From Candidatus Omnitrophota bacterium (lineage in GTDB: Bacteria; Omnitrophota; Gorgyraeia; Gygaellales; Profunditerraquicolaceae): DNA of 64,000 nt. The stretch lies in assembly GCA_041662125.1 (NCBI GenBank), contig JBAZTA010000004.1, positions 343 through 64,342 of the forward strand. The letters run 5' to 3'. Below, one piece after another: positions 2,373 to 25,163 of the stretch. The position numbers were made by a program, and so were the translations under genes. Position 1 is the stretch's first letter. The number at the start of each line of letters is the position of its first letter. Below the pieces are notes generated by a model. The model saw only the letters and a list, made by a program, of their open reading frames with translations, was not told the DNA's origin and ran no database searches.

Positions 2373-5300
2373 GCTTATTTAACCAGCTTTTCACCGCTTT
2401 CTCTTTCTTCCCCTGGGCTGATTCCGAATATATATTTTCCTCATTACCAGATTGCCGTATCTGGTTTGTTTTCCGTTTAGACATTTGATACTCTAACTGC
2501 TCTTTATCGCGTAGCGCTTCTTTACGCCTTTCTACTGCTGATTGCTGCTGGTCAATCTTGGCTTTTGCCGCCGATTCCCGCTTATCGAGTAATGGCTGCT
2601 GACCTTGAGATCGTATAAAACGTTTTTGCTGCTTTAACTCTGCCTGAAGCAGCTGTTCTTCTTTAACCCGCTGGCGCTTTTCTTCTTTAGCCGCCTCCAA
2701 CTCTTGAACGCGTTCCAACTTCTCTTTTTTCGCTGTTATCCGTTGTTCATGAATTTGTTTTTGTTGCTGGATTTTCTGCTCTACGAGCTGGAGTTTAGCT
2801 TCCTCAGCCTGTTTCAAGCGTTCTTGTTTTTGCTGCAGGGCCTCCTGATGCTGCGCAAGGCGCTGTTTTGCCAATTCCTGATCCTGCGAAGCCATTTGGC
2901 GCTTTTGCTCTTCAAGCTGATGTATACGCTCCTGTTCCTGCTTCTCTGCTGCCAGGCGCTTCTCTTCTTCTTCCTTGGCCAGCTGTTCCAGGCGCTTTTT
3001 TTCTTCTTCCTGAGCAAAAATACGGGCCGCCGAAACAGCCTGTTTTTGCTCTAACAGTTCTTTTTGTTTCTCCGCGATTTTCAGTTTCTTGGCTTCAGCT
3101 AACTTTGCCTGTTCTGCTGCTGCCTGCTTCTCCGCTGCCAGCTGCTTCTCTTCCGCTTCCTTAGCCAACCGTTCTTGGCGAACATTCTCGTCTTTAAGCT
3201 TCTTCAAACGCTCCTGCTTCTGGGCCTCTAAAACCAACCGGTTTGCTTTTTTAATCCCTGCCTGCTCTTCTGCTATCTGTTTCTGCTTTTCCTGGGCTGC
3301 TTTTTCCGCTGCCAACTGCTTCTCTTCCGCTTCCTTAGCCAACCGTTCTTGGCGAACATTCTCGTCTTTAAGCTTCTTCAAACGCTCCTGCTTCTGGGCC
3401 TCTAAAACCAACCGGTTTGCTTTTTTAACCCCTGCCTGCTCTTCTGCTGTCTGTTTCTGTTTTTCTTGTTCCTGCTTCTCTGCTGCCAGACGTTTCTCTT
3501 CCTCTTCCTTAGCCAGCTGTTCTTGGCGTTTTCTTTCTTCTTCAAGCTGTTTAAAACGTTCCTGCTTATTGATTTCCGCTGCCAACCTCTTTGCTGCTTT
3601 AAGGCTTGCCTGTTCCGCTGCTATTTGCTTCTGTTTTTCCTGTTCCTGCTTCTCCGCTGCCAAGCGTTTTTCTTCTTCTTCCTTGGCCAACTGTTCCGTT
3701 GATTTTTTTTCTCCGTCAGGCTTATGCAAAGTTTCCTGTTTCTTTTCCTCTATTGCCTTATTCCCGATCTGCCCTTTATCTCCTTTAGCCTTCTTTTGCA
3801 ATCTCTGTTTACGCAATTCTTCCTTTTGTATCCGCGCTTCTTCTAAAGAAACCTCTTTTCTTTTCGCAAGCCAGGCAGAAACATCTTCTTGCGACTGTTC
3901 TCCTCCCGCAGCCTGCGGAGATTTTTGCAGCTTTATCAAGGCCTGTTCCTGGGCCGCTACCCCTTCCGGCTTAAGCGCTTCCTGAGGCTTTAAAACCTCA
4001 ACCGATTGTTGCAGAGGGGCTATTGACTCTGCTTTTTTTTTAGCCTCCAGGGCTATTTGTTTTATCTGATCCGCTTGCTCTTGTCGGCGCTTCTTGTCTT
4101 GCGCAGCCTGTTTTAAACGCGCCTCTTTTTTCTCTTGAGCTTCCCGCTGCTTTATTTCTTTCTGTTTTCCTAATTGAATCTTCTGTATTTCAAGGGCCTG
4201 CTTTTGCTCTTCGATCTGAGCGAGGTAATTTTGTTCCTGCTCAGTTAATTGCTGAGTGCATTCTTTTTTTAATTTCTCCTCTTGCTTCTTTTTTTCTTGT
4301 TTTAATCTTTCCTGTTCCGCGGCTTTTTGCTTCTGTTTTTCTTCTTCAGCACGAACAAGTTCAGCCGCGCGCTGTTTTTCTTCCGCTTGCCGCTTTAACT
4401 CTTCCTGTTTTCTTTCTTCAGCGAGAAGCTTTCTTTCTTCCCTGATCTTTTCTTTTGCCGCTTCCAATTCTTGCAGCCGTTCCTGTTTTTCTTTCGCGGC
4501 TTCAAGCCGTTCCTCTGCCTTCTGCTTGGCGAGTTCTTCTTTATTTTTCTTTGTTTCTTCAAGCTTCTTAAGGAGCGCCTGTTTTCTTTGTTCTTCTGAT
4601 ACCTGTTTCTCTGCTGCCAGGCGTTTTTCTTCCTCTTGCTGAGCCAAATCTTCCTGCCGCTTCTGCTCCTGCGCAAGCTGCTTTATGCGCGCTTCTTTTT
4701 GTTGCTGGGCGAGTTTCCTTTTATCTTCTTTGAGCTTTTCCTGTTCACTTAAACGCTGTTTCCGCGCGTCTTCTTTTTGTTTCTTGCTGAGCTGCTTCTG
4801 GCGTTCCTCTTCCTGCCGTACGGCCTCTAACTGTTGCCGCTGCTGCAGCTGCTCTAATGCAAGTTTTTGCGTGATCAATTCCTGTTTCTTAGCCTCGATT
4901 TCCGCAAGGCGAGCCTGAGCCATACGCTCACGCTCCAGATTCTCTTCATTCAAACTTTTTTGTTCTTTTTGTTTTGCCAGGTCTTCTTGGCGCCTGCGTT
5001 CCTCATCTTGGGCAAAGAAGCGGGCCTGCGTGGCGATTCTTTTTTCTTCCTCCAAAGCAATCTGCCGCTGTATCTGGTCCTCTTCCTTAATATACTGATC
5101 TATCCTGTTTACCAAAGCGTTGATTCTGCCGTCCTCACCCAGATATTCTGTCTGCATGCCCGGGACGGTTTTCTGTACTGCCGAAGTTTCCTCAATTTTC
5201 TTATCCGTTCTGCACCCGGCCATGGAAGGAGCCGGCAGGGAATCAACTATTTTACTCTTATCTACCTGTATACCTGCCGGTGACTGCTCTTTTAAGAAAT

Positions 5301-5529
5301 CTTGGATCGCCTGCTTGCGCCTCAAAACCTCTGCTTTTTTCTTACGCAGCGCCTTGATATATTCCTCTTCTGCTTTGACCTTCTGCCGCACATCTTTCAG
5401 GCGCATTTCTTTTTCAACCGCGTTATTATCTTGAGCATAAGAGGCAGCGCTTCCCCAAAACATACATCCCATTACCCATACACCCGCGATCATAAAGAAT
5501 AATTTTTTCATCAGATAACCCCTAAGCAT
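2332..5529 (-). CDS. Giant (1065 aa) secreted E/K/Q-rich coiled-coil or single-alpha-helix protein with internal tandem repeats
   Basis: N-terminal signal peptide MKKLFFMIAGVWVMGCMFWGSAASYAQ. More than 800 aa of charged low-complexity helix (EEEKRLAAEKQEQEKQKQ...). Exact 58-aa (174-bp) tandem repeats are visible in the DNA at about 3131-3650. Its start codon abuts the stop of the upstream secretin gene (5529/5530). Confidence 0.8.
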   Translation of the reverse strand: MLRGYLMKKLFFMIAGVWVMGCMFWGSAASYAQDNNAVEKEMRLKDVRQKVKAEEEYIKALRKKKAEVLRRKQAIQDFLKEQSPAGIQVDKSKIVDSLPAPSMAGCRTDKKIEETSAVQKTVPGMQTEYLGEDGRINALVNRIDQYIKEEDQIQRQIALEEEKRIATQARFFAQDEERRRQEDLAKQKEQKSLNEENLERERMAQARLAEIEAKKQELITQKLALEQLQQRQQLEAVRQEEERQKQLSKKQKEDARKQRLSEQEKLKEDKRKLAQQQKEARIKQLAQEQKRQEDLAQQEEEKRLAAEKQVSEEQRKQALLKKLEETKKNKEELAKQKAEERLEAAKEKQERLQELEAAKEKIREERKLLAEERKQEELKRQAEEKQRAAELVRAEEEKQKQKAAEQERLKQEKKKQEEKLKKECTQQLTEQEQNYLAQIEEQKQALEIQKIQLGKQKEIKQREAQEKKEARLKQAAQDKKRRQEQADQIKQIALEAKKKAESIAPLQQSVEVLKPQEALKPEGVAAQEQALIKLQKSPQAAGGEQSQEDVSAWLAKRKEVSLEEARIQKEELRKQRLQKKAKGDKGQIGNKAIEEKKQETLHKPDGEKKSTEQLAKEEEEKRLAAEKQEQEKQKQIAAEQASLKAAKRLAAEINKQERFKQLEEERKRQEQLAKEEEEKRLAAEKQEQEKQKQTAEEQAGVKKANRLVLEAQKQERLKKLKDENVRQERLAKEAEEKQLAAEKAAQEKQKQIAEEQAGIKKANRLVLEAQKQERLKKLKDENVRQERLAKEAEEKQLAAEKQAAAEQAKLAEAKKLKIAEKQKELLEQKQAVSAARIFAQEEEKKRLEQLAKEEEEKRLAAEKQEQERIHQLEEQKRQMASQDQELAKQRLAQHQEALQQKQERLKQAEEAKLQLVEQKIQQQKQIHEQRITAKKEKLERVQELEAAKEEKRQRVKEEQLLQAELKQQKRFIRSQGQQPLLDKRESAAKAKIDQQQSAVERRKEALRDKEQLEYQMSKRKTNQIRQSGNEENIYSESAQGKKEKAVKSWLNKLEEMDARLRQVLW
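3131..3650 (-). repeat. Coding tandem repeat, period 174 bp: two near-identical copies plus a diverged third
   Basis: 3131-3294 and 3305-3469 are nearly base-identical (differences e.g. taatccc/taacccc and gctatctg/gctgtctg). A third, more diverged unit follows. On the minus strand this encodes LVLEAQKQERLKKLKDENVRQERLAKEAEEKQLAAEK..QEKQKQIAEEQAGIKKANR. Confidence 0.85.
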
Positions 5530-6798
5530 CTATTGCTTCATTTTTTCTACAACTACTTTTTCCACTTCCTCTAAAACCCTGAGGTCCTGTTCTTGCCTGC
5601 GCAGATCCTGCTCCAATGCTTCTCTTTCTGAAAGCAGGGAAGAATGTTTTTTATTGAGCATCTCGACCTTAGTCGCGGTTTCTTTTTGTTTTTTCTTTTC
5701 CTGAGCCTCTGCCACTAACACATCCTTTTCCTGTTTCTGTTTTTCCTGAAAATAATGCTTTCCCAGGCCGTACCTCTCCTGCTGCCCCATTTTTACAAAC
5801 TCATTCGGCGTGATTATCGTAGGAGAGACAAAGATCATTAATTCTGTCTTATCAAACGTGTCTTTCTTGCTTTTAAACAAATACCCAAAGCCGGGGATAT
5901 CTCCTAAAAAAGGTATCTTCGTTTCTCCCTTGATGACTTTATCTTTGATCAATCCGCCGATGATCAATGTCTGCCCGTTACCAACAATGACCTTCGTCGT
6001 TGCTTCACGCCGGTCAATAATGGGAACATTATATGACACCCCGGAAGCAGTCAGCGGCAACTCTCCGGTCTTTTCGCTTATCTGTGGATACAATTCCATA
6101 GCTATGTTGCCAGCTTCATTGATGGTCGGAGTTACCTTCAGGCTTATACCAACTTGTTCAAAATGTACTACCCAGGTCACCGTGGTGACGCCATCAGTGG
6201 TTGTCGCCTGCGGCTCGGCCCAAGGGACACTTTGAATGATCTTTAATTCCGCTTCACGGTTATTCACCGTTGTTATCCGCGGCGCAGAAAGGATGCTCGT
6301 ATCCACCGCGTTAGCTAACGTTTGCAATACCACATTGATATTATCATCAAATATGGCAAAAGTAAACGGCGTTTCCGAAACTCCTGATGACGACACCGGA
6401 GGGTATAAAGTATTTTTGTAGGAAAGGCTTTGAGTTATCGGCCCTGGTAACGCTCCCAAGGTACTTGCTGAGCCGGACTTTAAAGTGCCGATAGGCAGAT
6501 ATCCTTTATCCGCGAATAACCGCCAATTCACGCCTAAAGAGTGTTCTTTCTGTAATTTTGCTTCAATGACCCGGGCTTCGATCAAAACCTGCTGAGGAAC
6601 AGTATCCACCATTGCCAGGTAATCTTCAACCCGCTGGACGTTATCAGGATAATCGATCACAACAATAGAATTCGGCTCATTGCCATAGAGAACCTTTCCC
6701 TCCGTAGATAACAACGATCTAATGTTATCACTGACTTGTTGAGCATAAACTACGGAAAAGCAAAAAAGAAAAAATAAAACGTATCCTAACTTTTTCAT
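5530..6798 (-). CDS. Secretin core protein (one N-domain plus secretin C-domain) lacking an N0 domain; C-terminal EK-rich coiled-coil tail
   Basis: Signal peptide MKKLGYVLFFLFCFSVVYAQ. N-domain motif NSIVVIDYPDNVQRVEDYLAMVDTVPQQVLIEARVIEAKL. Secretin signature IPFLGDIPGFGYLFKSKKDTFDKTELMIFVSPTII. About 90 aa of charged C-terminal extension. Confidence 0.8.
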   Translation of the reverse strand: MKKLGYVLFFLFCFSVVYAQQVSDNIRSLLSTEGKVLYGNEPNSIVVIDYPDNVQRVEDYLAMVDTVPQQVLIEARVIEAKLQKEHSLGVNWRLFADKGYLPIGTLKSGSASTLGALPGPITQSLSYKNTLYPPVSSSGVSETPFTFAIFDDNINVVLQTLANAVDTSILSAPRITTVNNREAELKIIQSVPWAEPQATTTDGVTTVTWVVHFEQVGISLKVTPTINEAGNIAMELYPQISEKTGELPLTASGVSYNVPIIDRREATTKVIVGNGQTLIIGGLIKDKVIKGETKIPFLGDIPGFGYLFKSKKDTFDKTELMIFVSPTIITPNEFVKMGQQERYGLGKHYFQEKQKQEKDVLVAEAQEKKKQKETATKVEMLNKKHSSLLSEREALEQDLRRQEQDLRVLEEVEKVVVEKMKQ

Positions 6799-6852
6799 GT
6801 ATTCTCCTTCTCACTGATAGCCACTTCTATCCATACTACAGCAGGCATACTG

Positions 6853-7806
6853 CTAATTCGTAGTAGTTGCCGATGACGAGGAAGACGCACTGCCGGATGA
6901 GGAAGTAGTTCCCGTCGAGGTACTGCTCCCTGCCGTAGTAACAACGCCTACTATATCAGAAGCTTTTAAATACTTCATCTTAAAAATTTTACTTGTCATA
7001 CGCTGATCGATCTGTTTTAAATAATCTTCGATTTGCGCGGCATTCGGAGGATAATCAATAATAATAATTGAATTCGGGAGCTGCCCTAAAAGGATCTTTC
7101 CTTTCTCAGAAATAAGGTCATAGATCGTGCTTTCTTCCTTTTTTGCCTCAGCCGGCAGAGCCGCGTTACCCGCAGGAGATGCTACCGTCTTTGATTGGGC
7201 GCCTTGCGCTGCTTTCGCAGCTTCAAGCAGCTTCTTAGCTTGAATATATTTTAAAACAACCATCTTGGTAACCAGATGAGGACTGACCCGGATAATCGAA
7301 CCTTTTTTCTCTACCACCAGATTACTGATCTCAGCAATTCCTTCAAGAGCCTCTTCTAATGAAATGTTCGTAAAACTGGCGGTGATTTTCCCCTTGATAT
7401 CTTTATCAACCAAAATATTCAAATTATAATCATGCGCAATAACGCGGAACAAGTCAGACAACTCCACATTCCTTAACTCAATCGAATATGACGGCTGCTC
7501 ACTTTCTAAACGCTTGATCTCTAATACCGGCGCAGGCGCAGTTAATTCTTTTTTTACAACGTCTTTCTTTCCCGCATCCTTAACATCGGCTTCTGCTTTT
7601 TCGTCAGCCGGCTCTTCATCCTTACTATCGTCAACGCCGGAATCTTTTTGCCCAACGCTGGGCACCGAAGGCTTCGGTTGAGCCGGTTTTTCGGAATCCT
7701 CATTTTCCATTTCTGTCTGCGGCCGGGCAAACAATGGATCTTGGTAATTATAAAGCATAAAAAAGAAACCGATTAATCCGATAAACGCTATTTTCTTTAG
7801 TGTCAT
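6853..7806 (-). CDS. Secretin N0-N1 domain protein (N-terminal half of a split secretin) with acidic linker and Ser/Thr-rich C-terminal tail
   Basis: Signal/TM MTLKKIAFIGLIGFFFMLYNY. Acidic low-complexity stretch. N0/STN-like block SIELRNVELSDLFRVIAHDYNLNILVDKDIKGKITASFTNISLEEALEGIAEISNLVVEKKGSIIRV. N1-like block LPNSIIIIDYPPNAAQIEDYLKQIDQR. Tail TTAGSSTSTGTTSSSGSASSSSSATTTN. Confidence 0.65.
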   Translation of the reverse strand: MTLKKIAFIGLIGFFFMLYNYQDPLFARPQTEMENEDSEKPAQPKPSVPSVGQKDSGVDDSKDEEPADEKAEADVKDAGKKDVVKKELTAPAPVLEIKRLESEQPSYSIELRNVELSDLFRVIAHDYNLNILVDKDIKGKITASFTNISLEEALEGIAEISNLVVEKKGSIIRVSPHLVTKMVVLKYIQAKKLLEAAKAAQGAQSKTVASPAGNAALPAEAKKEESTIYDLISEKGKILLGQLPNSIIIIDYPPNAAQIEDYLKQIDQRMTSKIFKMKYLKASDIVGVVTTAGSSTSTGTTSSSGSASSSSSATTTN

Positions 7807-9863
7807 TTTTTAAGTCCTTGTTCTGAATTCAAATCTTTGCCACCGATGATAGATTCGAATTCTGTTTTATCAAGCCCTTTTCCCCACATGACTGTTACCT
7901 GATTTTTTTGCACACCGTACGCGAACAACTCTTTCGTCGCAAGATTCGAGAAAAAATCGCCCCGGCCCTCCTTGAAAACCCCCCGCTTATTTTCCTCGAC
8001 GGATATGCCCGGGTATTTTTTCTGAAGCCACTGTTTTTGCCCTTGCGCAAATTCTAACGCATCATCAATCGTATCCCAAAACGACACAAAACGTATGAGC
8101 CGGTTGCCCTGGCTATTTTCATACACCATAACACGATCACCCTGCCAACCCGAAACGGATTTATCGGAAGTTTCCTTGTCTAACAAGGTATTTAAAGATA
8201 TAAGGAGCGTAAATTCACCAAGGGTAGTTTCATAGATCTTTTTCCATTGCAGGGGGACCTTAACGCTCTCTTCAACAACGGGAACATCTTTTTCTGACGC
8301 TATTTCCCTGCCCACATACTTATGAGGATGCATGATCTCCTCCATGGAAACAGGAGGCGTTGTATAAACAGCATTAATGTCGCTCCAATTGAACTGCCGT
8401 AAATACGCCTGTATGAACCGCGCCCCATAACCGTATACATTATACCGGATATTCTGCTTTGCGTACTGTGATTGTTTTAGAAATTTATCTTCCAGCAAGG
8501 TAAAAACATCTTCAAGATTCTGCAGTTTCTTATCATCCTTGTTCAAAATATACTCAAGCATTACCGCGGTAGCATCCCCCTCTATAAGGGACTGACGGGC
8601 AAACGCCAGGTCAAAATTATCCCTCGTATGAAGGCGGTCAGAGAATTTCTCAATATCGTAGTTTTTATCCTGAAACGCATGCGCCAGCTCATGGACCGCG
8701 ACTACTTCGGCAAAATGAGGAGGCAGCCAATCTCCGATAAAAATCGTCTTTGTTTTAGGGTCATATAACCCCGCGATCGAAGAAATTTCCGCATTAAGCA
8801 TGCTTTCAAGATAATCCGCATCTTGATGCACTAAACCCAGCCATTTCATGACAAAACCTTCATTATCCCTGATTTCTTCAGGAAAATCATTATCCGATGC
8901 TGTTCTTAAAAGCTCCCCGAACGACACACGGTCTTTATATTCGACTTGAATCGTTTCTGGTTTCACCCAGCCTCGTATCTGCATAACTGCCTGCGTCAAA
9001 CCAGGAAGCATTCCTTTAAGCTTTTCTTTTTCTTGTGTGACCTTTTCTTCAACAACCGCGGGAATTGCCGATACAACCGGAACACCGAAATCGGAATAGG
9101 TGACGGTCTGCAAAATATACATATCACCCAGCTTGCCTTCAGCACGCAACAGGCGCGGAAGGAACGTATTGGCATCTACCCAGGTTTTGACCTTGATCTC
9201 ACCAACCACATTCCAATACGTAAACATTTGAGCGCCCAGCCTATACTGCAGGACAAAACAATCTTTGCCATTCCTTTTTTCAACACCAACCAGCTCAAGA
9301 GTTAAAGCGTCAGCCGCGGCTGCATTGATTGAAGCAAGGCTGTTTAAAACCCCGTATTCAACCGCTTGTTGAGCGTCTTTTGCCGAGATCTTCAATTGCT
9401 CGCATTTCCATTCCCGTTTATTCAAATCCCAGGTAAAAGGGATCCCCCTGATCATATACGTTTGTACCCATTGCGAAGTTGAAATACCGTTAGATAAAAG
9501 CAATGATACACTGACTCTACCGGTCGTCCGATAATCATCATGATTGGTAATTTCGCTCTTAAAATCTGATTTGATATGGAAAAGGGGGTTTTCAAGCCAC
9601 GTTTCGATTTCCATGTGCACAGAACGTGCTTTAAAAAATGCTGAGGTGGTTTTTTCCAGGATTTGATACGGGCTAAGTTTAACGCTTACTTGAGGGAATG
9701 AAGAAATTATCTGATGTTCTTTTTGGCCTTGCGCAGCAGTATCCGGTTTAGGCCCCATACAATCAGTTAAATTGATCCGCTGCCAACCGGCAAGTAACGG
9801 TAAAGCAATAACGAAGAACATGCCGACAGAGATTCTTTTTAATCCTGACCCTGTTTTCATCAA
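7803..9863 (-). CDS. Secreted or periplasmic HEXXH zinc-metallopeptidase-like protein (686 aa)
   Basis: N-terminal signal/TM (MFFVIALPLLAGW). HEXXH motif VVAVHELAHAFQD with a downstream Glu (SLIEGDATAV). No closer family assignment is possible by eye. Confidence 0.5.
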   Translation of the reverse strand: MMKTGSGLKRISVGMFFVIALPLLAGWQRINLTDCMGPKPDTAAQGQKEHQIISSFPQVSVKLSPYQILEKTTSAFFKARSVHMEIETWLENPLFHIKSDFKSEITNHDDYRTTGRVSVSLLLSNGISTSQWVQTYMIRGIPFTWDLNKREWKCEQLKISAKDAQQAVEYGVLNSLASINAAAADALTLELVGVEKRNGKDCFVLQYRLGAQMFTYWNVVGEIKVKTWVDANTFLPRLLRAEGKLGDMYILQTVTYSDFGVPVVSAIPAVVEEKVTQEKEKLKGMLPGLTQAVMQIRGWVKPETIQVEYKDRVSFGELLRTASDNDFPEEIRDNEGFVMKWLGLVHQDADYLESMLNAEISSIAGLYDPKTKTIFIGDWLPPHFAEVVAVHELAHAFQDKNYDIEKFSDRLHTRDNFDLAFARQSLIEGDATAVMLEYILNKDDKKLQNLEDVFTLLEDKFLKQSQYAKQNIRYNVYGYGARFIQAYLRQFNWSDINAVYTTPPVSMEEIMHPHKYVGREIASEKDVPVVEESVKVPLQWKKIYETTLGEFTLLISLNTLLDKETSDKSVSGWQGDRVMVYENSQGNRLIRFVSFWDTIDDALEFAQGQKQWLQKKYPGISVEENKRGVFKEGRGDFFSNLATKELFAYGVQKNQVTVMWGKGLDKTEFESIIGGKDLNSEQGLKK

Positions 9864-10322
9864 CTACGCTTCTCCCGGGACAACTGCTTCGATTTTAATA
9901 ATATACTCCCCTTGAGTATCTTTTAAAATAACATCTTCGGCATTAATCGTTATCACCTGTTTATTATCAATAATATCTCCGACTTCATACACCTGGCCGT
10001 TAATGATTGCTTTACTTTTATTTTTAGGCGAATGCATAATCGCCGATACCGTTAAATAATCAAGCGGGATTTGCGCGCTTTTATTTTCAAAAGATGATTC
10101 CTCATCTGTGCTTAAAAAAGGGTTCTGCCGGGGCAACGCGTCAAAATAAGAAGACTGCGGCGCCTGCACCGGAGCATCACCTGTTACCGCAAGAGCGGCC
10201 TTCTTTTTTGGTTTTGGCTCAGAAGACTGATCTGCCAAATGCCCTATTTCAGTTTCAGAGCTGCAGCCTCCGCAAGAAAAAGCAAACAATAAAATAAGCG
10301 AAAGGATCCTTATCTTATTCAA
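9864..10322 (-). CDS. PilP/GspC-HR-like lipoprotein
   Basis: Lipobox LFAFSCGGCSS. C-terminal beta-domain pattern AIINGQVYEVGDIIDNKQVITINAEDVILKD resembles PilP and the GspC HR domain, and is paralogous to 19885-20355. Starts with TTG at 10322, overlapping the upstream HTH gene by 8 nt. Confidence 0.55.
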   Translation of the reverse strand: MNKIRILSLILLFAFSCGGCSSETEIGHLADQSSEPKPKKKAALAVTGDAPVQAPQSSYFDALPRQNPFLSTDEESSFENKSAQIPLDYLTVSAIMHSPKNKSKAIINGQVYEVGDIIDNKQVITINAEDVILKDTQGEYIIKIEAVVPGEA

Positions 10323-10506
10323 TGCTGCCCCTTATAATCTTACTTAACTCATTAAGGTTCTGTTGGCTATATTGCCGCCAATGATTAATCGAATTGCGTT
10401 TTGGCTTTGGGAAAATCCCTTTTCTTTCGTAGCGGAAAAGGGTTTGTTTGGAAATCCCAAGTTTTTCCGCGGCCTCCTTAGCAGTATATATTATTTCTTG
10501 ATCCAT
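10315..10506 (-). CDS. Small excisionase/MerR-type HTH DNA-binding protein (63 aa)
   Basis: YTAKEAAEKLGISKQTLFRYERKGIFPKPKRNSINHWRQYSQQNL fits the Xis/AlpA-type helix-turn-helix pattern. It is a paralog of the N-terminal domain of 25688-26341. The C-terminal tail KIIRGSIE resembles a truncated prepilin leader. Confidence 0.65.
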   Translation of the reverse strand: MDQEIIYTAKEAAEKLGISKQTLFRYERKGIFPKPKRNSINHWRQYSQQNLNELSKIIRGSIE

Positions 10507-10692
10507 ATGCTGTAACTAATTGTGACACAGCTAACAACGCTTAAAAAAGCTTACATAAATAACCAAGTTTTACCTAACCATACCTGATACTATTTGATGA
10601 TACTTTAAACTATTAGATATAAATTGTCAAGAATTATATTTTTTCCTATAGTATCGTAAGTTTTTGCCACACAAATATATTCAACAAATCCC
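10507..10692 (-). promoter_or_regulatory. AT-rich promoter region of the HTH-led secretin operon
   Basis: The minus strand contains cTTGACAa (complement of 10626-10633) with AT-rich -10-like hexamers 16-17 bp downstream. This is the largest intergenic gap in the pilus region. Confidence 0.4.
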
Positions 10693-11526
10693 TTAAACCC
10701 GCGCAAGCTTCAAGAGTTTACTCTTGCTATCCTCAGAAATTTCTGAGAATTTTATACCTAAATAATACCGCTGTCTTTCCTGAATATTGCAATAAACAAT
10801 CTCTCCCTGAACCGCAATAACCTCATCACCGATCCCGGGATTCGGCCTAAATTCTATATCCACCGTAAGGCCTTTAGGCAGAAATAAGCATACCTGTAAA
10901 CTAACAGCTTTCCCGGATTCCGATATATTACAGGACACCCCCTCAACAGAAAGAATAGAACGCAATTGCACTTCTGTTCCTGCAAAGATAACACGCACAG
11001 GAACAGTTAAACTGCGGCGGCCTGATTCCCTGCGAAACGGTACCCCTTGTAAAGGATTTTTCTTGAATAATAACTTCTCCAGTTTAAAAAAATCTGCTTG
11101 CGGGCCGTAATATAAATCAAGCGCTTGCAGGATAGCGCGGGGAGAAGCAATCAACGGCTCTATCGTTGCCCCGCTCAGAGAAGCTATGCGGTCAAGTAAC
11201 GCAGTATCAAAAGGGTCCCCGCAAGCCACATACAACGTATTCTTTATTTTAAATAACGGGATACACTCATACTCCCGGCAAAAAGATTCGCTTAACCCTT
11301 GGAAGACATGCGCGCTAATTTTATAGTCCGGAATAGTTACGTAATTGACCGCGCTTTCCTGTGAGAAAAATACAAAAATATCTTCTTCGGTAAGATACTC
11401 CAGCTTTACCAACACACTCCAAATGGACCTGCCTAACTTCAACGCTTCCTGCTTGGCGTCAAGCAGTTGTTGCGAAGTAATCAACGTACTGCGGACAAGC
11501 TTCAACTCAAACTCTTCCATCGGCAA
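10693..11526 (-). CDS. MshEN (T2SSE_N)-PilZ two-domain c-di-GMP effector
   Basis: The N-terminal 140 aa is GSPII_E-N-like (LITSQQLLDAKQEALKLG...ACGDPFD...DLYYG). The C-terminus is a PilZ fold with RRESGRRS (RxxxR) and CNISESGKAV (D/NxSxxG). Confidence 0.7.
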   Translation of the reverse strand: MPMEEFELKLVRSTLITSQQLLDAKQEALKLGRSIWSVLVKLEYLTEEDIFVFFSQESAVNYVTIPDYKISAHVFQGLSESFCREYECIPLFKIKNTLYVACGDPFDTALLDRIASLSGATIEPLIASPRAILQALDLYYGPQADFFKLEKLLFKKNPLQGVPFRRESGRRSLTVPVRVIFAGTEVQLRSILSVEGVSCNISESGKAVSLQVCLFLPKGLTVDIEFRPNPGIGDEVIAVQGEIVYCNIQERQRYYLGIKFSEISEDSKSKLLKLARV

Positions 11527-11530
11527 TGCG

Positions 11531-12103
11531 CTATCCTTTTTCTTGCTGAGGGTAATACTTTTTTATAAAATCAGCCAGGTTTTCCGAAATCTTCTGTTCT
11601 TCAATAATATACATGCCTCCCTTAGTTAACTCTTCCGGAGATACCTGCGGGTACTTTTTCTGCATTGCTTCAAGCCATTCTGCCTGCTGACGGGCAATTT
11701 TCAGCAATACCCGGTTATCGCGGACCACATCAAAATAATCAAGCGACTGCTTCACGATCATTTTCAATTCTTCGTTTTCCCAGGGTTTGGTAATAAAGCG
11801 GTATACCTGCCCCTTATTGATTGCCTGAATAGCAGCTTCCAGGTCAGGATACCCGGTAAAAAGGATACGGATCGAATCAGGATAGAGCTGTTTAACTTTA
11901 ACCAGAAAATCAACGCCCTGGCCGTCTGGCAGGCGGTTGTCGGAAATGACTAAATCCACACCTCCTAAACTCTTGAGTTTATCAAGGCCTTCCTGAACAC
12001 AACCAGCAATATTTATATCCCTGTCTTCAGCGCGCAGCAGCCTGCTTAAACTGCTTAAAATATTCTGCTCATCATCAACGATTAAAATAGTATGGTTAGG
12101 CAT
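11531..12103 (-). CDS. Response regulator receiver (CheY-like REC) with short C-terminal extension
   Basis: ILIVDDEQNI...DLVISDNRLPDGQGVDFLVKVK...FTGYPD...ITKPW: phospho-acceptor Asp and conserved REC motifs. Confidence 0.85.
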   Translation of the reverse strand: MPNHTILIVDDEQNILSSLSRLLRAEDRDINIAGCVQEGLDKLKSLGGVDLVISDNRLPDGQGVDFLVKVKQLYPDSIRILFTGYPDLEAAIQAINKGQVYRFITKPWENEELKMIVKQSLDYFDVVRDNRVLLKIARQQAEWLEAMQKKYPQVSPEELTKGGMYIIEEQKISENLADFIKKYYPQQEKG

Positions 12104-12455
12104 TCTTTTGCTCCTCTAAATTTTTAACATAGTGATCGATATACTCCTTTCCGGAAGACGGAAAGATTTTTGTAAACATGACCCCCATGCCCGCCGCCTC
12201 TGAGCCACCCGCGGGCCTGCTCCACTGCACTATCCCTTCCGCATGAATGATCTTCTTTTCTTTGCCGCCTTCATCAAACTCAAACATGACCTCGATCTTG
12301 GCATTAGCCGGCTCTACCTTATCGGTTGAAACAAACATCCCTCCCGCGGAAATATCGCGGGTTTCGACATACTGCCAAAAACTTTTTCCTCTGACCTCTA
12401 CTCGTAGCTTAACAAACGCCCGCTTATATTGCCTTTTTTCGTCAAAAGCCCCCAT
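12096..12455 (-). CDS. Standalone PilZ-domain protein
   Basis: RQYKRAFVKL (RxxxR) and DISAGGMFV (DxSxxG) motifs. Confidence 0.75.
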   Translation of the reverse strand: MGAFDEKRQYKRAFVKLRVEVRGKSFWQYVETRDISAGGMFVSTDKVEPANAKIEVMFEFDEGGKEKKIIHAEGIVQWSRPAGGSEAAGMGVMFTKIFPSSGKEYIDHYVKNLEEQKNA

Positions 12456-12528
12456 CGTTTCTCCTGGTTATTGTATACGTTTCCCCAACCCCGTCCTTGC
12501 GCGCTTTAAAAAACTAAAACAATCTTAA

Positions 12529-13380
12529 TCATGACCCTTGAGGCGCCCTCGGCAATTGCACCACAAACGTTGTCCCTGCTCCAACAGTACTCTCCACCTT
12601 CACATCGCCGCCATGATGCTTAACAATATTATAGCTGACTGACAACCCAAGCCCCGTGCTTTTTTTGGTCGAGAAGAACGGATCGAAGATCTTCGGCAAG
12701 ACATCTTTTGCGATGCCAGTTCCGGTATCAATTACTTTAACATATACATTCCTGGCATCTTCATAGGTGCTCATCGTGATCGTCCCTTTATCAACGATAG
12801 CCTGGCTGGCATTAATCAACAGATTAAGGAAAACTTGAGACAATTGCGTCGTATCTGCCAATATCTTGGATTTTGCCTGATAGTCTTTTATGACCGTCAC
12901 CTTATACTTTATCTCATTCCAGACGATCGCAAGCACCGACTCCAGGACATGATTAATCTCAACCGCAGCATTCTGCGTCTCGCTTCTGCGGGAGAAAGTA
13001 CGCAGGTCAGAGACGATTTTCTTGATACGTACCGCCCCGTCAAGCGACTCCTGGTTCATCGCCTTCATGTCTTCGATCAATACCTTATTTTCTTTTTCCG
13101 TTAAAGAAATCTTTCCCTCGATCTGCTGGGTATAATCTTTAAGGCTTTGCAGGTTGCTGATTAGAAAACCGAGCGGATTATTGATCTCATGCGCGATACC
13201 CGCAGCCAACGTTCCCAAGGAAGCCATCTTTTCCATATGCACGATCTGAGCTTCGGCATCTTTTACAAGCTTTGTTTTCTCATCGACTTTTTTCTTCCAA
13301 AAGCTGTTCATGACAACGGTATATACCACGCAGGCAATAACGCTGATCGCGATCACTATGAGCATTCCCCCGATATTCAT
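12529..13380 (-). CDS. Sensor histidine kinase (TM anchor + DHp + HATPase_c, no sensor domain)
   Basis: N-terminal TM helix. H-box HEINNPLGF. N, G1 and G2 boxes (LLINASQA, IDTGTGIAKD, GLGLSVS). Confidence 0.85.
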   Translation of the reverse strand: MNIGGMLIVIAISVIACVVYTVVMNSFWKKKVDEKTKLVKDAEAQIVHMEKMASLGTLAAGIAHEINNPLGFLISNLQSLKDYTQQIEGKISLTEKENKVLIEDMKAMNQESLDGAVRIKKIVSDLRTFSRRSETQNAAVEINHVLESVLAIVWNEIKYKVTVIKDYQAKSKILADTTQLSQVFLNLLINASQAIVDKGTITMSTYEDARNVYVKVIDTGTGIAKDVLPKIFDPFFSTKKSTGLGLSVSYNIVKHHGGDVKVESTVGAGTTFVVQLPRAPQGS

Positions 13381-13457
13381 CTGCTTAACCCGCCCCTTCC
13401 CTATCCCGGCAGCAGGATATCTTCACCCGGCCGGGTCTCTTGTATGGTATCTATTCC

Positions 13458-14696
13458 CTAGTTCCCTTTAATAACGCGGATCATATTCCACAACGGCAGG
13501 AATATTGCCAACGCCATCCCGATAACCACCATTCCCAAGACCGCGGTCATCACCGGCTCGATCATCGTCGTTAGGTTTTTTATCGCATTCTTTACTTCCA
13601 AAGTAAAATATTCACACAATGAATCAAGCATGAGCGGCAACGCACCGCTCTTTTCTCCCACGGAGATCATGTAACCGACCAGGCGGGGGAAAAATTTACT
13701 GTTCAATACCGCTCCGGAAATACCCTTTCCGTCGGCAACATCGCGTTTAATAGCTTCGATCTCTTTTGCCAAAACAACATTGCCCAGCGTCATTCCGACG
13801 ATATCGATCGTATTGAGCACCGGCAAGCCCGCCTGATACAAAACACTTAACATCGAGGCAAAACGCAACATCGTTATTTTCGTATATACCTTTCCATAAA
13901 TATAGATCTTAAATTTTAAGCCATCCCAAAGGAACCTGCCTGAAGCGGTATTAATATACCACTTCACGAAAACAACTAATCCGATTATCGCCGGGAAGAG
14001 GATATACCAATAATACCGCAAGGTATCGCTGATAACGATCATCACCTGTGTCGGCAGGGGAAGATCGACTTTTGCTGCTTTATAGATCTGGGCGAACTGC
14101 GGAATAACAAAGATCGAAAGCACACAGACCGCGATTACCAGCGAGATCACGACCATTAACGGGTAACGCAGCGCTGCTTTGATATTCGTCTGGGTCTCTA
14201 AATCTTCTTCCAGCATATGCGCCAGGCGCAGCAAAACCTTTTCTAAAACGCCCGCGCTTTCCCCGGCGATCACCGTATTCACGTACAAGTCGGAAAAAAC
14301 ACCCGGGTGCTTCGCCATAGCCTGAGATAAACTTGATCCCCCTTCCACATCGCGCACCACCTGATGCAGGGCGTCTTTGAGCACGGGATCCTCGCATTGT
14401 TCCCCTAAAGCGGTTAACCCTTCCAGGATAGGAACCGCGGCTTTTATGATTGTGGCGAACTGCCGCGAGAAAATAACCAGCGACTCTATTTTTACTTTTT
14501 TTGACTGAGCAAAAAGCCCCCCAGACGAAACCCTTGATTTGGAGATCGAAGCATCTTTGGCTTTAACGCTGACATTGACCGGAATATACCCCATCTTCGC
14601 CAGCTTCGTCGTCAACTCCACTTCAGTTGAAGCGTCCATTTCGCCTTTAACAAGTTTTCCGTCTGAATCGACTGCCCGATATGCGTACGTTGACAT
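13458..14696 (-). CDS. pilC: Type IV pilus / T2SS inner-membrane platform protein PilC/GspF
   Basis: About 400 aa with duplicated T2SSF domains and three TM segments. Conserved motifs: FSRQFATIIKAAVPIL..L and GEKSGALPLMLDSL. Confidence 0.9.
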   Translation of the reverse strand: MSTYAYRAVDSDGKLVKGEMDASTEVELTTKLAKMGYIPVNVSVKAKDASISKSRVSSGGLFAQSKKVKIESLVIFSRQFATIIKAAVPILEGLTALGEQCEDPVLKDALHQVVRDVEGGSSLSQAMAKHPGVFSDLYVNTVIAGESAGVLEKVLLRLAHMLEEDLETQTNIKAALRYPLMVVISLVIAVCVLSIFVIPQFAQIYKAAKVDLPLPTQVMIVISDTLRYYWYILFPAIIGLVVFVKWYINTASGRFLWDGLKFKIYIYGKVYTKITMLRFASMLSVLYQAGLPVLNTIDIVGMTLGNVVLAKEIEAIKRDVADGKGISGAVLNSKFFPRLVGYMISVGEKSGALPLMLDSLCEYFTLEVKNAIKNLTTMIEPVMTAVLGMVVIGMALAIFLPLWNMIRVIKGN

Positions 14697-14722
14697 ATTT
14701 TACGATGCCTTTTTAGCCTGCT

Positions 14723-16387
14723 TTACAACTGCTCCGAGGAAACCCTTGAGATTTCTTCAATAGTAGTTACCCCTAACAAGACTTTCGATAACCCGTCTTC
14801 GCTTAAAAGTTTCATGCCGTTTTCCTGCCCTTTTTTACGCAAAGCAAGCGCGGATGCCTGCTGCACGATCATCTCTCTCATTTCATCACTGATCACCAAC
14901 AATTCAAAGATGCCGGCCCGGCCGCGGTAACCAGTGCCTTTACAACTGTCGCATCCTTTCCCGTGATATAATGTCACGTTCGAGGCGTTCGTCAAGCCCC
15001 ATTTTTCTAAGATAACTTTTGACGGCTGATACGGCTCTTTACAATTCTCGCAGATCTTCCTGACAAGCCGCTGCGCCATGACGCCGATTAAACAAGCGGA
15101 AATGAGAAACGGTTCAACTCCCATATTGACGAGCCGGGTCACTGCGGAAGGAGCATCATTGGTATGAAGCGTCGAGAACACTAAATGGCCGGTCAACGCT
15201 GCCTGGACAGCAATAACGGCAGTTTCTAAATCCCTGATTTCCCCCACCATAATCACGTCAGGATCCTGACGCAGTATAGCGCGCAAGCCATTGGCGAAAG
15301 TGATGCCGGCTTTTGCGTTAACCTGGATCTGCCGGATAAGCCCTAAACGATATTCCACAGGGTCTTCAATCGTAATAATGTGCCGGTCGATCGTATTGAT
15401 CGTGGTGAGCGCGGAATAGAGCGTGGTCGTCTTACCGCTTCCCGTCGGACCGGTTGAAAGGATGATGCCGTATGGCTTGGAGATCAAGCCCCGGTAACGA
15501 TCCAGGTCTGTCTGTGTCGCAAAACCCAACCGTTCCAGGCCGATCCTGACTGAAGCGGTATCCAAAAGCCTCATAACCAGGTTCTCTCCGTAAATAGTCG
15601 GAATAGTCGAAACACGGAAATCAATGATCTTTTCATCTACCTTAACCTGGAAATGGCCGTCCTGCGGGACCCTGCTTTCAGCAATATCCATCCCCGCTAA
15701 CACCTTCAAACGGGAAAGGATCGCCGGTTCCCATTCTTTGGGAGGAGAAGGGATCTCGTGCATAATACCATCGATACGGAAGCGTATGCGGGTCATATCC
15801 TGTTCGGGCTCAATGTGAATATCTGAGGCCCGGTCATGGACTGCCTGAGCAATAACCAAATCTACCAACTTAATAATTGAGGTGCCTTCCGAACGTGACT
15901 CTTTGGAAGGGGCAGACTCTTTGGTATTTAACCCCTCAAGCAAGTTTTTAGTAATCTTGCGCTCAACATATAAACGCTGCTGCGCGTCTGCGATATCCTG
16001 AGTGCCGGCATAATAAACTTCAATAGGCATCCCGGTATGCATCTGTATCTGGTCAATGGCGTATAAATCATTCGGGTCAGCCATGGCAACGCGCAGCGTA
16101 TTATTATCGATCTTAACCGGAATTGACTGTGTCTGGCGGGCTAACCCTTCCGGCACGGTTTTAATGAGCTCCTCGTCAAACTCGATATTTTCCAGGCTCA
16201 CATACTTAAAACCCAGCGATCGGGCGATAGTTTCATGCAAGAGAGGGCGGGAAACAATATTCATATCAACCAGGACTTTATCCAGCGGCCGCTTTAACAT
16301 TTTCATTTCCTGGCTTGCCCTGTCTATGTCCGCCTGATTAACCAATCCCGAGCTTAACAATAATCCTTCCAGATCTTTATCATTCAT
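14723..16387 (-). CDS. pilB: PilB/GspE-family assembly ATPase (second copy)
   Basis: N-terminal GSPII_E-N domain. Walker A GPTGSGKTTTLYSAL. C-terminal CxxC...CxxC (CENC...CDSC). Confidence 0.9.
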   Translation of the reverse strand: MNDKDLEGLLLSSGLVNQADIDRASQEMKMLKRPLDKVLVDMNIVSRPLLHETIARSLGFKYVSLENIEFDEELIKTVPEGLARQTQSIPVKIDNNTLRVAMADPNDLYAIDQIQMHTGMPIEVYYAGTQDIADAQQRLYVERKITKNLLEGLNTKESAPSKESRSEGTSIIKLVDLVIAQAVHDRASDIHIEPEQDMTRIRFRIDGIMHEIPSPPKEWEPAILSRLKVLAGMDIAESRVPQDGHFQVKVDEKIIDFRVSTIPTIYGENLVMRLLDTASVRIGLERLGFATQTDLDRYRGLISKPYGIILSTGPTGSGKTTTLYSALTTINTIDRHIITIEDPVEYRLGLIRQIQVNAKAGITFANGLRAILRQDPDVIMVGEIRDLETAVIAVQAALTGHLVFSTLHTNDAPSAVTRLVNMGVEPFLISACLIGVMAQRLVRKICENCKEPYQPSKVILEKWGLTNASNVTLYHGKGCDSCKGTGYRGRAGIFELLVISDEMREMIVQQASALALRKKGQENGMKLLSEDGLSKVLLGVTTIEEISRVSSEQL

Positions 16388-16388
16388 C

Positions 16389-17033
16389 TTAATCCCTGAT
16401 AGTCAACAATCTTCCAACCCACGCCTTTACTGCGTTGGCATCATCTGCTTCAGGCGCGCATTTGAGATACTTCTGATAATACTCAACCGCCTTTTTATTA
16501 TCTTTCAATTGTTCTTCATAGATAACACCCAGGTTATAGCAGGCATCAGCCTGATTCTGATTCAATGCCAGCGATTTCAAAAACATTTTTACTGCCTGGT
16601 TGAATTGCTTGGTTTTCAAATACTCGATCGCCAGGTTATAATATAAATCACTGCTCTGCGGCTCGATCTCAATGGCGCGCAGATAGAGCGGGATAGCGTC
16701 TTTTGATTGCTCTTTCTGGGACAAAAGCCATGCCCTGCGGGCTGAGGACACAGTAGGTTCATCGGCTGCCGGTGAGGCTTGCGCCGGCGGCGCTGTGCGG
16801 GGAGGTATTCCCCCCAGGAGATCCTGCGCTTTTTTTAATTCTTCGTCAGCAAGGGCATAATTTCCTTCCTGCATATATTTTTCCCCCGCAGAATAATACT
16901 CTTTTGCTTTCTTGATCTTATCAGTGGGAGAAAAAGAAGCCGCCTGGTATTCCTGGGCAGCGGCAAACACAGAAACGAACAAAACCCCTATCAGCATTCC
17001 CAGCGGAACTATACACGCGCGATCTTTTTTCAC
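16389..17033 (-). CDS. TPR-repeat protein with signal peptide, PilF/PilW-like secretin pilotin candidate
   Basis: Signal peptide followed by TPR repeats (AQEYQ...YYNLAIEYLKTKQFNQAVKMF...YNLGVIYEEQ). Sits between pilQ and pilB. Confidence 0.6.
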   Translation of the reverse strand: MKKDRACIVPLGMLIGVLFVSVFAAAQEYQAASFSPTDKIKKAKEYYSAGEKYMQEGNYALADEELKKAQDLLGGIPPRTAPPAQASPAADEPTVSSARRAWLLSQKEQSKDAIPLYLRAIEIEPQSSDLYYNLAIEYLKTKQFNQAVKMFLKSLALNQNQADACYNLGVIYEEQLKDNKKAVEYYQKYLKCAPEADDANAVKAWVGRLLTIRD

Positions 17034-17036
17034 CTG

Positions 17037-19789: not shown

Positions 19790-19884
19790 TATGAATGCCT
19801 CTTGGATAACACCTGATTTTTTCCTGATAAAAAATTATACCACACTCCCAGCAATAGTTTGACTATTTTTATACACGCCAAAGC

Positions 19885-20355
19885 TCATTGGTTTTGTTCC
19901 CCGGGAAACGTCAAATAAAAACTCTGGCTTTCTTTTTTAAGCAACACCTTTGCTTTCTGAACTTCAACGACTTCATAACCGCCTACCGCGTCGCCTTGCT
20001 TCACGATCTCATTATTAATAAAAGCGTAACCTGCCCTGCCTTTTCCGAAAGAGATGCCCTGGAGTTTAAGTTCATCCATTTTAAATTCTTTATCAAACAG
20101 GGCAATAAAAGGGTCGCGTCCCCAGCTAAGCTTGCCTCGCTCCAGCTGCTGGATACGCATAGTATCGCCGGCAGCCGGCGTTGCGGCAGACATCGATGGA
20201 GACAATACTGCCACCGGAGGGGCCAGCGACACGGTTGTTTGCGTCTCGGGGATCGGCGCTTTAGAAGGCTTCTTCTTTAAATTCCCCAACGTAACAAAGG
20301 CTAAAACGACGATAAGACAACCTGTTAAGATAAATTGTTTTATTTGTTTAGACAT
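19885..20355 (-). CDS. pilP: PilP-like pilus assembly protein
   Basis: N-terminal TM/lipoprotein-like segment. C-terminal beta-domain LQGISFGKGRAGYAFINNEIVKQGDAVGGYEVVEVQKAKVLL is typical of PilP and the GspC HR domain. Confidence 0.65.
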   Translation of the reverse strand: MSKQIKQFILTGCLIVVLAFVTLGNLKKKPSKAPIPETQTTVSLAPPVAVLSPSMSAATPAAGDTMRIQQLERGKLSWGRDPFIALFDKEFKMDELKLQGISFGKGRAGYAFINNEIVKQGDAVGGYEVVEVQKAKVLLKKESQSFYLTFPGEQNQ

Positions 20356-20375
20356 ACGTATTTAAAGATTAACCG

Positions 20376-20993: not shown

Positions 20994-21004
20994 GATACTT
21001 TTTG

Positions 21005-23055: not shown

Positions 23056-23067
23056 ACCAACACCTCC

Positions 23068-24573: not shown

Positions 24574-24608
24574 CTTTGCCTCTTTTGTAAAAAGAAATAT
24601 TTCCTATC

Positions 24609-25148: not shown

Positions 25149-25163
25149 TACGTGCTATCCCCT

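Follow-up and report, generated by a model that had tools for sequence, protein, structure and literature searches.

BldC of Streptomyces, a MerR-like protein of 68 amino acids (aa), assembles into head-to-tail cooperative multimers on variable numbers of tandem direct repeats (PMC5859096), and CarH represses a promoter by placing its DNA-binding domains on three tandem 11-bp direct repeats there (PMC9304148). Here we analyse a stretch of 64,000 nucleotides (nt) from a Candidatus Omnitrophota bacterium (contig JBAZTA010000004.1; hereafter the window), in which a small MerR-like gene, the "mini-MerR" gene, stands at the head of a secretin operon inside a type IV pilus (T4P) cluster. We propose, with fair confidence in the reading as a whole, that its product is a regulator of two operons, and that its C-terminal tail consists of translation signals and is not a decayed prepilin site. 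By analogy with the systems above, the protein probably switches the secretin operon that it heads as well as a sister pilin operon, through a repeat element shared by their promoters. The sister operon begins with a gene in which a related helix-turn-helix (HTH) domain is fused to a pseudopilin. The two genes are as follows.

10315..10506, minus strand: standalone mini-MerR gene, an open reading frame (ORF) of 63 aa with an ATG start and a TAA stop, coding for a winged HTH alone (β1-α1-α2-wing-α3)
25688..26341, minus strand: fusion paralog of 217 aa, with a MerR HTH (residues 1-58), the prepilin site G58↓M59-S-L-V-E63 (arrow, cleavage) and a GspH-like pseudopilin; first gene of the minor-pilin/PilMNOPQ operon

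The 63-aa standalone protein (MDQEIIYTAKEAAEKLGISKQTLFRYERKGIFPKPKRNSINHWRQYSQQNLNELSKIIRGSIE) matches Pfam MerR_1 with an E value of 8e-12 (45.5 bits, cut-off 21.6) and Pfam MerR with 38.7 bits (curated cut-off 28.2); the fusion also matches both families above their curated cut-offs. In an NCBIfam scan of the standalone protein, no family reached its own cut-off. An AlphaFold (AF2) model built with 44 homologs, with a predicted local distance difference test (pLDDT) score of 82.5, consists of β1, α1, α2, a β wing and α3 (residues 48-60), and residues 61-63 form its low-confidence end (mean pLDDT of the last block, 49). When the model was compared with known structures in Foldseek, it superposed on HiNmlR, CadR, CueR, MtaN and CarH with template modelling (TM) scores of 0.76-0.84; the superposition was weaker for RacA and BldC, which are domain-only proteins. 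The model and these superpositions display the β-α-α-β-β-α order of a winged helix. Since the protein stops at residue 63, three residues past α3, and has no α4, coiled coil, effector domain or any other further domain, it is a MerR-type winged helix and nothing else.

Homologs of the standalone protein fall into 49 clusters of 58-70 aa (a few are longer), and those that carry an organism name are mostly labelled Omnitrophota. In the source annotation, members of the standalone and fusion families are called "MerR family transcriptional regulator" or prepilin-domain proteins, nothing more specific. The standalone gene is real and codes for a small, conserved DNA-binding protein at the head of a secretin operon in Omnitrophota. 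The standalone protein also gives a Pfam HTH_17 match of 27.2 bits, just above the cut-off of 27, and weak matches to the TIGR01764 excisionase family and to the N-terminus of IS607 transposase, as would be expected of a stray excisionase/AlpA-type or phage-derived HTH gene unrelated to the pilus locus. This origin is barely credible: the MerR_1 match is much stronger, no integrase or mobile-element genes lie adjacent, and T4P/secretin genes are neighbours in all loci examined, in a synteny conserved across dozens of genomes.

The initial annotation had taken the 63-aa ORF to be paralogous to the HTH of the fusion, and this held up well: BLASTP aligns the standalone protein with the 217-aa fusion without gaps, with 31 of 53 residues identical (58%; E = 4e-22). 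The motif SKQT..RYE of the DNA-contacting recognition helix is invariant in both families, and the two HTH modules are true paralogs. The remainder of the fusion has the properties of a prepilin. It passes the curated prepilin domain TIGR02532 (22.6 bits; cut-off 16.3), with a hydrophobic helix after the cleavage site, and its body is GspH-like, with weak GspH and ComGD matches and PF12019 recorded for several homologs. Its AlphaFold model (pLDDT 86.6) shows two domains and a helix broken at residues 59-60. The 44 clusters of fusion homologs (194-265 aa, 43-92% identity) have the same architecture and, in nearly all cases, full-length coverage, with a nearly invariant Gly at -1 and an invariant Glu at +5 of the cleavage site; therefore, the fusion is no sequencing or gene-calling artefact.

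As the initial annotation had also stated, each copy is the first gene behind the promoter of a pilus/secretin operon (TTGACA-17-TAAAGT and TTGACA-16-TAAAAT). In both cases the promoter is followed directly by tandem repeats.

10602..10630, minus strand: sigma-70-type promoter of the standalone gene, with -35 box TTGACA (10630..10625), a 17-nt spacer and -10 box TAAAGT (10607..10602); 10 of 12 consensus positions match
10572..10601, minus strand: putative operator of the standalone gene, made up of three 10-bp direct repeats in tandem, ATCATCAAAT AGTATCAGGT ATGGTTAGGT, the first of which abuts the -10 box
26349..26407, minus strand: fusion promoter and repeat element, with -35 box TTGACA (26407..26402), a 16-nt spacer, -10 box TAAAAT (26385..26380) and the repeats TATGACAAAT AGTATTAAAC CATATCAGGA G at 26379..26349

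The architecture of the standalone promoter recurs in about 25 orthologous loci, and the repeat core common to both promoters, CAAATAgTATTAA, is conserved in related loci from many metagenomes and metagenome-assembled genomes (MAGs). When the upstream regions of related loci were aligned, a conserved block was found from the first base after the -10 hexamer onwards, with the consensus AtcATCAAATAgTATtAAaTATATtCAg at standalone promoters and ...CAAATAtTATTAAGgTATATCAGGAG at fusion promoters, where the last repeat runs into the Shine-Dalgarno sequence; in the window, likewise, the third repeat of the fusion element overlaps the Shine-Dalgarno sequence. The autocorrelation of 29 standalone sites is 0.55 at a shift of 10, against about 0.29 at other shifts, which gives a period of 10 bp. 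The repeats of one locus (L021) read ACTATCAAAT ACTATCAAGT ATTATCAGTT, and a distant relative (L133) has five copies of nnTATCAAAT; the promoters of the more distant mini-MerR genes, which adjoin PilP-like and secretin genes or pilin genes, have 4-5 tandem nnTATCAAAT units.

When a position weight matrix (PWM) was built from 16 standalone loci of other genomes and run over the 128,000 positions of the window, its top score, 27.2 bits, fell at 10574..10601, with maxima of at most 18.4 in shuffled sequence; a matrix from fusion loci of other genomes scores 33.7 bits at 26351..26378. The string CAAATAGTAT occurs exactly twice in the 64 kb (0.21 occurrences expected), at 10587..10596 and 26365..26374, both on the minus strand and both 5 nt past the -10 box of an HTH gene. 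Across 2.02 Mb, comprising the window and the fetched loci, all 60 sites that reach at least 17 bits with a 22-nt core matrix lie on the strand of an HTH gene, directly past a -10-like hexamer; the training sites are among these 60, and what is telling is the lack of any other scoring site. The proposal of the initial annotation, a regulator dedicated to the operons that it leads, is strengthened by this conserved direct-repeat element, which both HTH genes share right after their -10 boxes.

Two further features of these regions were observed. In some loci the promoter and repeats are found far upstream of the HTH gene, by about 220 nt (L012, L060-L062) or 440 nt (L030, L108-L111), and in L012 and L060 the intervening sequence consists of GC-rich hairpin-like repeats. 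The spacer between the -35 and -10 boxes of the standalone promoter (10608..10624, minus strand; AATTTATATTTAATAG) is conserved, also in orthologous promoters, and continues the 10-bp A/T pattern, so that the bound region may extend upstream over the whole promoter.

Compared with the canonical MerR activators (MerR, CueR, SoxR and BmrR), the mini-MerR has the same N-terminal winged HTH (TM about 0.8, root-mean-square deviation 1.0-1.6 Å over 56-60 residues); however, it lacks α4, the α5 coiled-coil dimerisation helix and the effector domain, the promoter spacers are 16-17 bp long and not 19-20 bp, and direct repeats past the -10 box are found in place of a palindrome in the spacer. By its domain it belongs to the MerR superfamily, but it fails the defining features of the canonical regulators, and it would act otherwise than a classical MerR protein, which twists the 19-20-bp spacer. 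The solved proteins closest in sequence are of the CarH/CarA type (2jml, E = 4e-7; 3whp and 5c8d, about 1e-6), yet CarH needs a B12-binding oligomerisation domain, of which the mini-MerR has none; its repeat period is 11 bp, whereas that found here is 10 bp, its site lies over the -35 box, whereas the present element lies past the -10 box, and the standalone protein scores 27.8 bits with the NCBIfam CarH model, against a cut-off of 400. BldC, like the mini-MerR, is built solely from a MerR-type winged HTH (about 60-70 aa, with neither coiled coil nor effector domain), and it matches the model in structure (6ama, TM 0.69 normalised to the target); BldC binds tandem repeats, and the HTH-gene promoters described here have 3-5 tandem repeats of 10 bp each. 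In contrast, the BldC repeat is AATTnnnnC, unlike the present one, and BldC is a pleiotropic developmental regulator, whereas the mini-MerR is tied to T4P/secretin operons and has a pilin-fused paralog. By this analogy, the mini-MerR, although no sequence relative of BldC, probably works like it.

The mini-MerR, and probably also the HTH of the fusion, would then bind the repeats as a head-to-tail multimer, in the manner of BldC and the CarH DNA-binding domains. The repeats could instead have another role, as the site of a different factor, as an RNA element of the 5' untranslated region (UTR) or as a part of the promoter, with the protein serving, for example, as an architectural DNA binder or as a partner of the MshEN-PilZ protein, which binds cyclic di-GMP (c-di-GMP). 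Binding of the repeats by the mini-MerR is argued by analogy, a transcription start about 7 nt past the -10 box would place part of the repeats in the transcript, and at the fusion gene the element fills the entire 5' UTR down to the Shine-Dalgarno sequence; moreover, the mini-MerR gene usually has the MshEN-PilZ gene upstream of it, in some cases with an overlap. We nevertheless judge such another role rather unlikely. The element always sits at one place relative to the -10 box, even though anything from 37 to 124 nt separates it from the start codon; a helical periodicity of 10 bp is typical of a protein lying on one face of the DNA; and in 2 Mb the element is found only before HTH genes. 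Among the ORFs of the cluster and their Pfam matches no other DNA-binding domain was found, and in a scan of 9800..11000 with Rfam no family matched, the sole hit being a meaningless miRNA (E = 0.59). Finally, there are the precedents for MerR-type domains on tandem direct repeats (PMC5859096, PMC9304148).

Coming back to the mini-MerR as the protein on the repeats, we note that both promoters are near consensus with normal 16-17-bp spacers and that the element covers about -6 to +24, which makes repression the likelier outcome; the protein is most likely a repressor. It would repress its own operon, in an autoregulatory manner, and cross-regulate the sister operon. The T4P/secretin clusters of Omnitrophota, an uncultivated phylum, carry a compact, conserved and probably regulatory module twice per locus: a promoter close to consensus, followed by the tandem 10-bp repeats and the gene for a MerR protein that consists of the domain only. 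It offers a concrete and cheaply testable regulatory circuit for organisms that cannot be grown. In a full-text literature search we found no description of this module, of an HTH domain as prepilin leader or of a MerR-like regulator of Omnitrophota pili.

The genomic context of the standalone gene was compared in loci from public assemblies and GTDB representative genomes, with the neighbours annotated by BLASTP against the window's own proteins. In the window the gene leads the following cassette, whose last three members were assigned by Pfam.

9864..10322, minus strand: PilP/GspB/GspC-like lipoprotein of 152 aa, overlapping the standalone gene by 8 nt; weak T2SSB and weak GspC matches
7803..9863, minus strand: DUF8575/DUF6782 protein, part of the standalone-led cassette 5530..9863
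6853..7806, minus strand: secretin N-domain protein of the same cassette
5530..6798, minus strand: secretin of the same cassette

The 152-aa lipoprotein resembles the 156-aa PilP-like protein that precedes the first secretin (E = 3e-5). In most of the informative loci the standalone gene is followed by the gene for the PilP-like lipoprotein, often by that for the DUF8575 protein, then by those for the secretin N-domain protein and the secretin, sometimes by that for a coiled-coil protein, and by that for a PilB-like ATPase; it usually overlaps the next gene by 8 or 11 nt (offset -7 or -10), and its usual upstream neighbour is the MshEN-PilZ gene. The members share an HTH of 58-70 aa with invariant SKQT..RYE and RN.IN.WR.Y, encoded directly upstream of, or overlapping, a gene for a PilP-like lipoprotein that is followed by secretin genes. 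The standalone gene forms an orthologous group of its own, found in many Omnitrophota MAGs and metagenome contigs. A check for a standalone copy fused to a pilin elsewhere, as proposed with the initial annotation, gave none: in about 40 related standalone loci, no pilin is joined to the standalone gene or comes next after it, and the group precedes the same secretin cassette. The fusion, in turn, is always first in a series of genes for a minor pilin, a second minor pilin, a large protein, a small protein, PilMN, PilO, a PilP-like protein and PilQ. Of two distant mini-MerR genes examined, one adjoins a PilP-like gene and a secretin gene and the other a pilin gene.

Because the standalone gene overlaps the lipoprotein gene, its end is read twice.

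10315..10333, minus strand: dual-coding tail, with AAGGGG at 10333..10328 (codons of R59-G60), a 5-nt spacer, TTG at 10322..10320 (within the codons of I62-E63) and the stop codon TAA at 10317..10315

The DNA of the tail reads ATA AGG GGC AGC ATT GAA TAA, and the ORF at 9864..10322 begins at the TTG of aTT Gaa. In other loci with the 8-nt overlap the TTG is kept, with a purine-rich AGGGG, GGAGG or GAGGTG ahead of it, and the residues vary (RG, RR or EV, then IE, LG, IG or IA); another clade has GGA GGA ... GTG (IIGGAGEL) and others AGG GAG GAA CAATGA. Since the nucleotide pattern stays constant while the residues vary, the R-G...E pattern of the tail appears to be largely imposed by two signals of the overlapping lipoprotein gene, its ribosome-binding site (the Shine-Dalgarno sequence) and its start codon. 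Translational coupling of the lipoprotein to the regulator is suggested by the 8-nt overlap and by the location of these two signals inside the tail. More generally, short C-terminal "motifs" in overlapping genes can stem from the need of the following gene for a ribosome-binding site and a start codon, a caution to be kept in mind elsewhere.

The initial annotation had read the same residues as a vestigial prepilin leader, an idea that gives way once the tail codons are recognised as the AAGGGG and TTG of the next gene, with nucleotides kept while residues vary. As a prepilin site the tail reads G60-S-I-E-stop, and it was found to have no hydrophobic residue at +1, no Glu at +5, no N_methyl match and none of the hydrophobic helix of about 20 residues that follows in prepilins. 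The resemblance of RG-SIE to RG-MSLVE is likewise not borne out. The BLASTP alignment of standalone and fusion proteins ends short of the tail, and, counted from the conserved Tyr of WRxY, the standalone protein has R13-G14 and the fusion G13-R14-G15, so that the RG pairs stand one residue out of register and two more gaps are needed to match the Glu. With a purpose-written dynamic-programming alignment, anchored and with random 5-residue tails as the null, RGSIE against GRGMSLVELIMV gave P = 0.37 at the standard gap costs of -11/-1, 0.05 at -6/-1 and 0.008 at -4/-1. The match is weak for a pattern chosen after the fact, and it rises above chance only with cheap gaps. Reading the standalone tail as a truncated α4 of MerR is possible but unneeded, as the wider family simply ends in ...ILGR.

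Along with the tail, the initial annotation had proposed that the standalone gene arose by duplication of the HTH-pseudopilin fusion and loss of the pilin body, with RG-SIE as the decayed junction RG↓MSLVE. Promoter, operator and HTH do resemble one duplicated unit, and a few standalone homologs (P0019 and P0049) end exactly in ...IMGRG* and ...LLGRG*, and so agree with the fusion leader as far as its cleavage Gly. In a neighbour-joining tree of 156 HTH domains (standalone, fusion and distant mini-MerRs; 200 bootstraps) the two types do not separate cleanly (support 0/200), which leaves the order of events and the direction of the fusion undecided and is compatible with this direction too. On the other hand, two gaps have to be opened to align the tail, which gives no significant match at normal gap costs, and the tail codons are already accounted for by the overlapping translation signals. 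A tblastn search for a relic of the pilin body downstream of the standalone gene, in any frame, returned only noise (best E, 2.6), and by BLASTP the downstream lipoprotein is unrelated to the pilin body of the fusion (E = 66). The lack of any pilin at that position in the related standalone loci argues in the same direction.

The degree of divergence also speaks against such an origin. Over the 53-residue core, identity is 66% between standalone proteins, 68% between fusions and 58% between the two types, and the pair in the window, at 58%, is no closer than this family average; the split is therefore old, with no recent duplication or gene conversion in this genome, and the paralogy is ancient. 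An exhaustive profile search recovered many more free-standing relatives of 60-80 aa, down to about 40% identity, which typically end in ...K(I/L)(L/M)GR plus 0-5 residues, whereas the homologs of the pseudopilin body mostly begin within 30 residues of the N-terminus, that is, with ordinary short leaders, and mostly have no HTH; as the profile included pilin columns, the match counts mix HTH-only and pilin-only proteins. With the mini-MerRs broader and more diverse as a free-standing group and the pseudopilins mostly short-leadered, parsimony favours the free mini-MerR as the older state. We consider a standalone gene derived from the fusion improbable, and it seems likely that the fusion was instead built from a standalone gene, whose native C-terminus, ...ILGR, became joined to a pseudopilin at G↓FTLIE. 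Of the initial annotation as a whole, then, the paralogy and the operon-leading position stand and the tail resemblance does not; in its interpretation, the dedicated regulator gains and the vestigial prepilin tail and the origin from the fusion are set aside.

The reading of the mini-MerR as regulator of both operons, with translation signals for a tail, has to be weighed against a number of observations. As regards the repeats, the matrix built from standalone sites alone ranks the fusion site second in the window with 15.5 bits, a score that by itself lies within the shuffled range, and the matrix built from fusion sites alone misses the window's standalone site, whose second half has diverged. 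The two elements of the window have mainly their first half in common, chiefly CAAATAGTAT, and the third repeat is degenerate at the standalone promoter. As regards the protein, BldC is absent among the matches of the family profile to PDB sequences at E ≤ 1, and identity in the structural alignments is 19-22%; co-occurrence and analogy are what connects the protein to the repeats, and the sign of regulation is deduced from position. Three standalone homologs (L010, L036 and L038) have no promoter or operator of their own and overlap the upstream MshEN-PilZ gene. As regards the tail, L019 and L030 keep RGH.E without an overlapping TTG. These tails and the ...GRG ends mentioned above make it likely that the Gly/Arg of the tail is loosely homologous to the native C-terminus of the family (...ILGR).

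Known prepilin leaders are short peptides, typically under about 30 residues. The fusion has a bona fide class III (prepilin) signal peptide motif, G↓[FM]-[ST]-L-[IV]-E followed by a hydrophobic helix, but its leader is 58 aa long and is a folded HTH. The leader is similar in size and fold to the standalone protein (58 aa and 60-64 aa, respectively), and some standalone proteins stop exactly at the residue before the cleavage site, so prepilin peptidase could release a complete DNA-binding protein. The mini-MerR fold would thus exist in two forms, one free (the 63-aa gene) and one tethered, as the cytoplasmic leader, of about 58 aa, of the first GspH/FimU-like pseudopilin. We tentatively consider, as a possibility that we think doubtful, that prepilin peptidase frees the 58-aa leader at G↓FTLIE, one for each pseudopilin matured, that the leader binds the shared operator at both promoters, and that the flux of pseudopilin processing in this way sets the transcription of pilus and secretin genes. 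The free paralog would set a baseline or multimerise together with the released leader.

In Pseudomonas, PilA-PilS-PilR and the system of minor pilins/PilY1 with FimS-AlgR feed the pilin inventory back through two-component kinases. The concept would be the same here, in that the state of pilins or minor pilins in the membrane acts back on how strongly pilin operons are expressed; the putative regulator, however, is the first gene of each operon and is once attached to a pseudopilin. If this is so, pilin maturation would be wired directly to transcription, and type IV filament systems would offer a new principle of regulation, in which a leader resembling a signal peptide serves as a diffusible repressor.

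Several observations concern the leader of the fusion itself. Eight positions ahead of the cleavage Gly, at residue 52, 26 of 30 fusion loci (L052-L084) encode Met (ATG), whereas 70 of 71 standalone paralogs have Leu. We considered whether the fusion might be an artefact of an internal start at this position: a start at Met52 would give an ordinary leader of eight residues, MEQILGRG↓MSLVE, but the codon is CTC in three loci, so that it cannot serve all loci as a start, and the upstream purine run is too distant for a good Shine-Dalgarno sequence; such a start would give at most an additional product. When residues 45-66 of the fusion are aligned with MerR (4ua1), the prepilin string G↓MSLVELI (GMSLVELI) falls on the α3-α4 motif GFTLNEI, with a 3-residue gap; the two motifs are unrelated, and their near-identity could have eased the gene fusion. 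In one homologous pseudopilin (P0197) the N-terminal leader is an HTH of another kind, excisionase-like and of the HTH_17 type (MTIKDVAKYLKLSLDTIYKLAQKGEVPASKIGKQWRF...KG↓LTLIE), which suggests that HTH-leader pseudopilins arose more than once.

Variation was also seen at the level of the standalone gene. One Omnitrophota genome (L031, 7803..8192) has two tandem mini-MerR genes, 7 nt apart, before the PilP-like/secretin cassette, with the promoter and operator at the first only. The subgroup formed by L010, L036 and L038 has the tail ...IMGL; in L010 and L038, the two with enough downstream sequence, the gene is followed by genes for two large unannotated proteins and a pilin gene, and not by the secretin cassette.

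In the window, both operons belong to one cluster of about 26 kb on a single strand (639..26341, minus strand), with two secretin cassettes and two PilB-like ATPases. It also encodes PilC, PilMN, PilO, two PilP-like proteins, a histidine kinase, a receiver protein and two PilZ-domain proteins, one of them fused to MshEN; the PilZ-domain proteins point to a c-di-GMP input. The second secretin (5530..7806, minus strand) is split into two ORFs, one for the N-domain (STN/Secretin_N; 317 aa) and one for the Secretin domain (422 aa), and the split is kept in orthologous loci, so it is no frameshift artefact. The DUF8575/DUF6782 protein (7803..9863, minus strand; 686 aa), which has an Hvo_1808-family match and a metallopeptidase-like HELAH motif, is encoded between the PilP-like lipoprotein and the secretin in many, though not all, loci. 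Between the secretin and the second ATPase lies the gene for a protein of 1065 aa (2332..5529, minus strand) that consists almost entirely of coiled-coil repeats rich in E, K, Q and A (a recurring unit is, for example, LAKEEEEKRLAAEKQEQEKQKQ), and a shorter counterpart of 446 aa comes after the first secretin.

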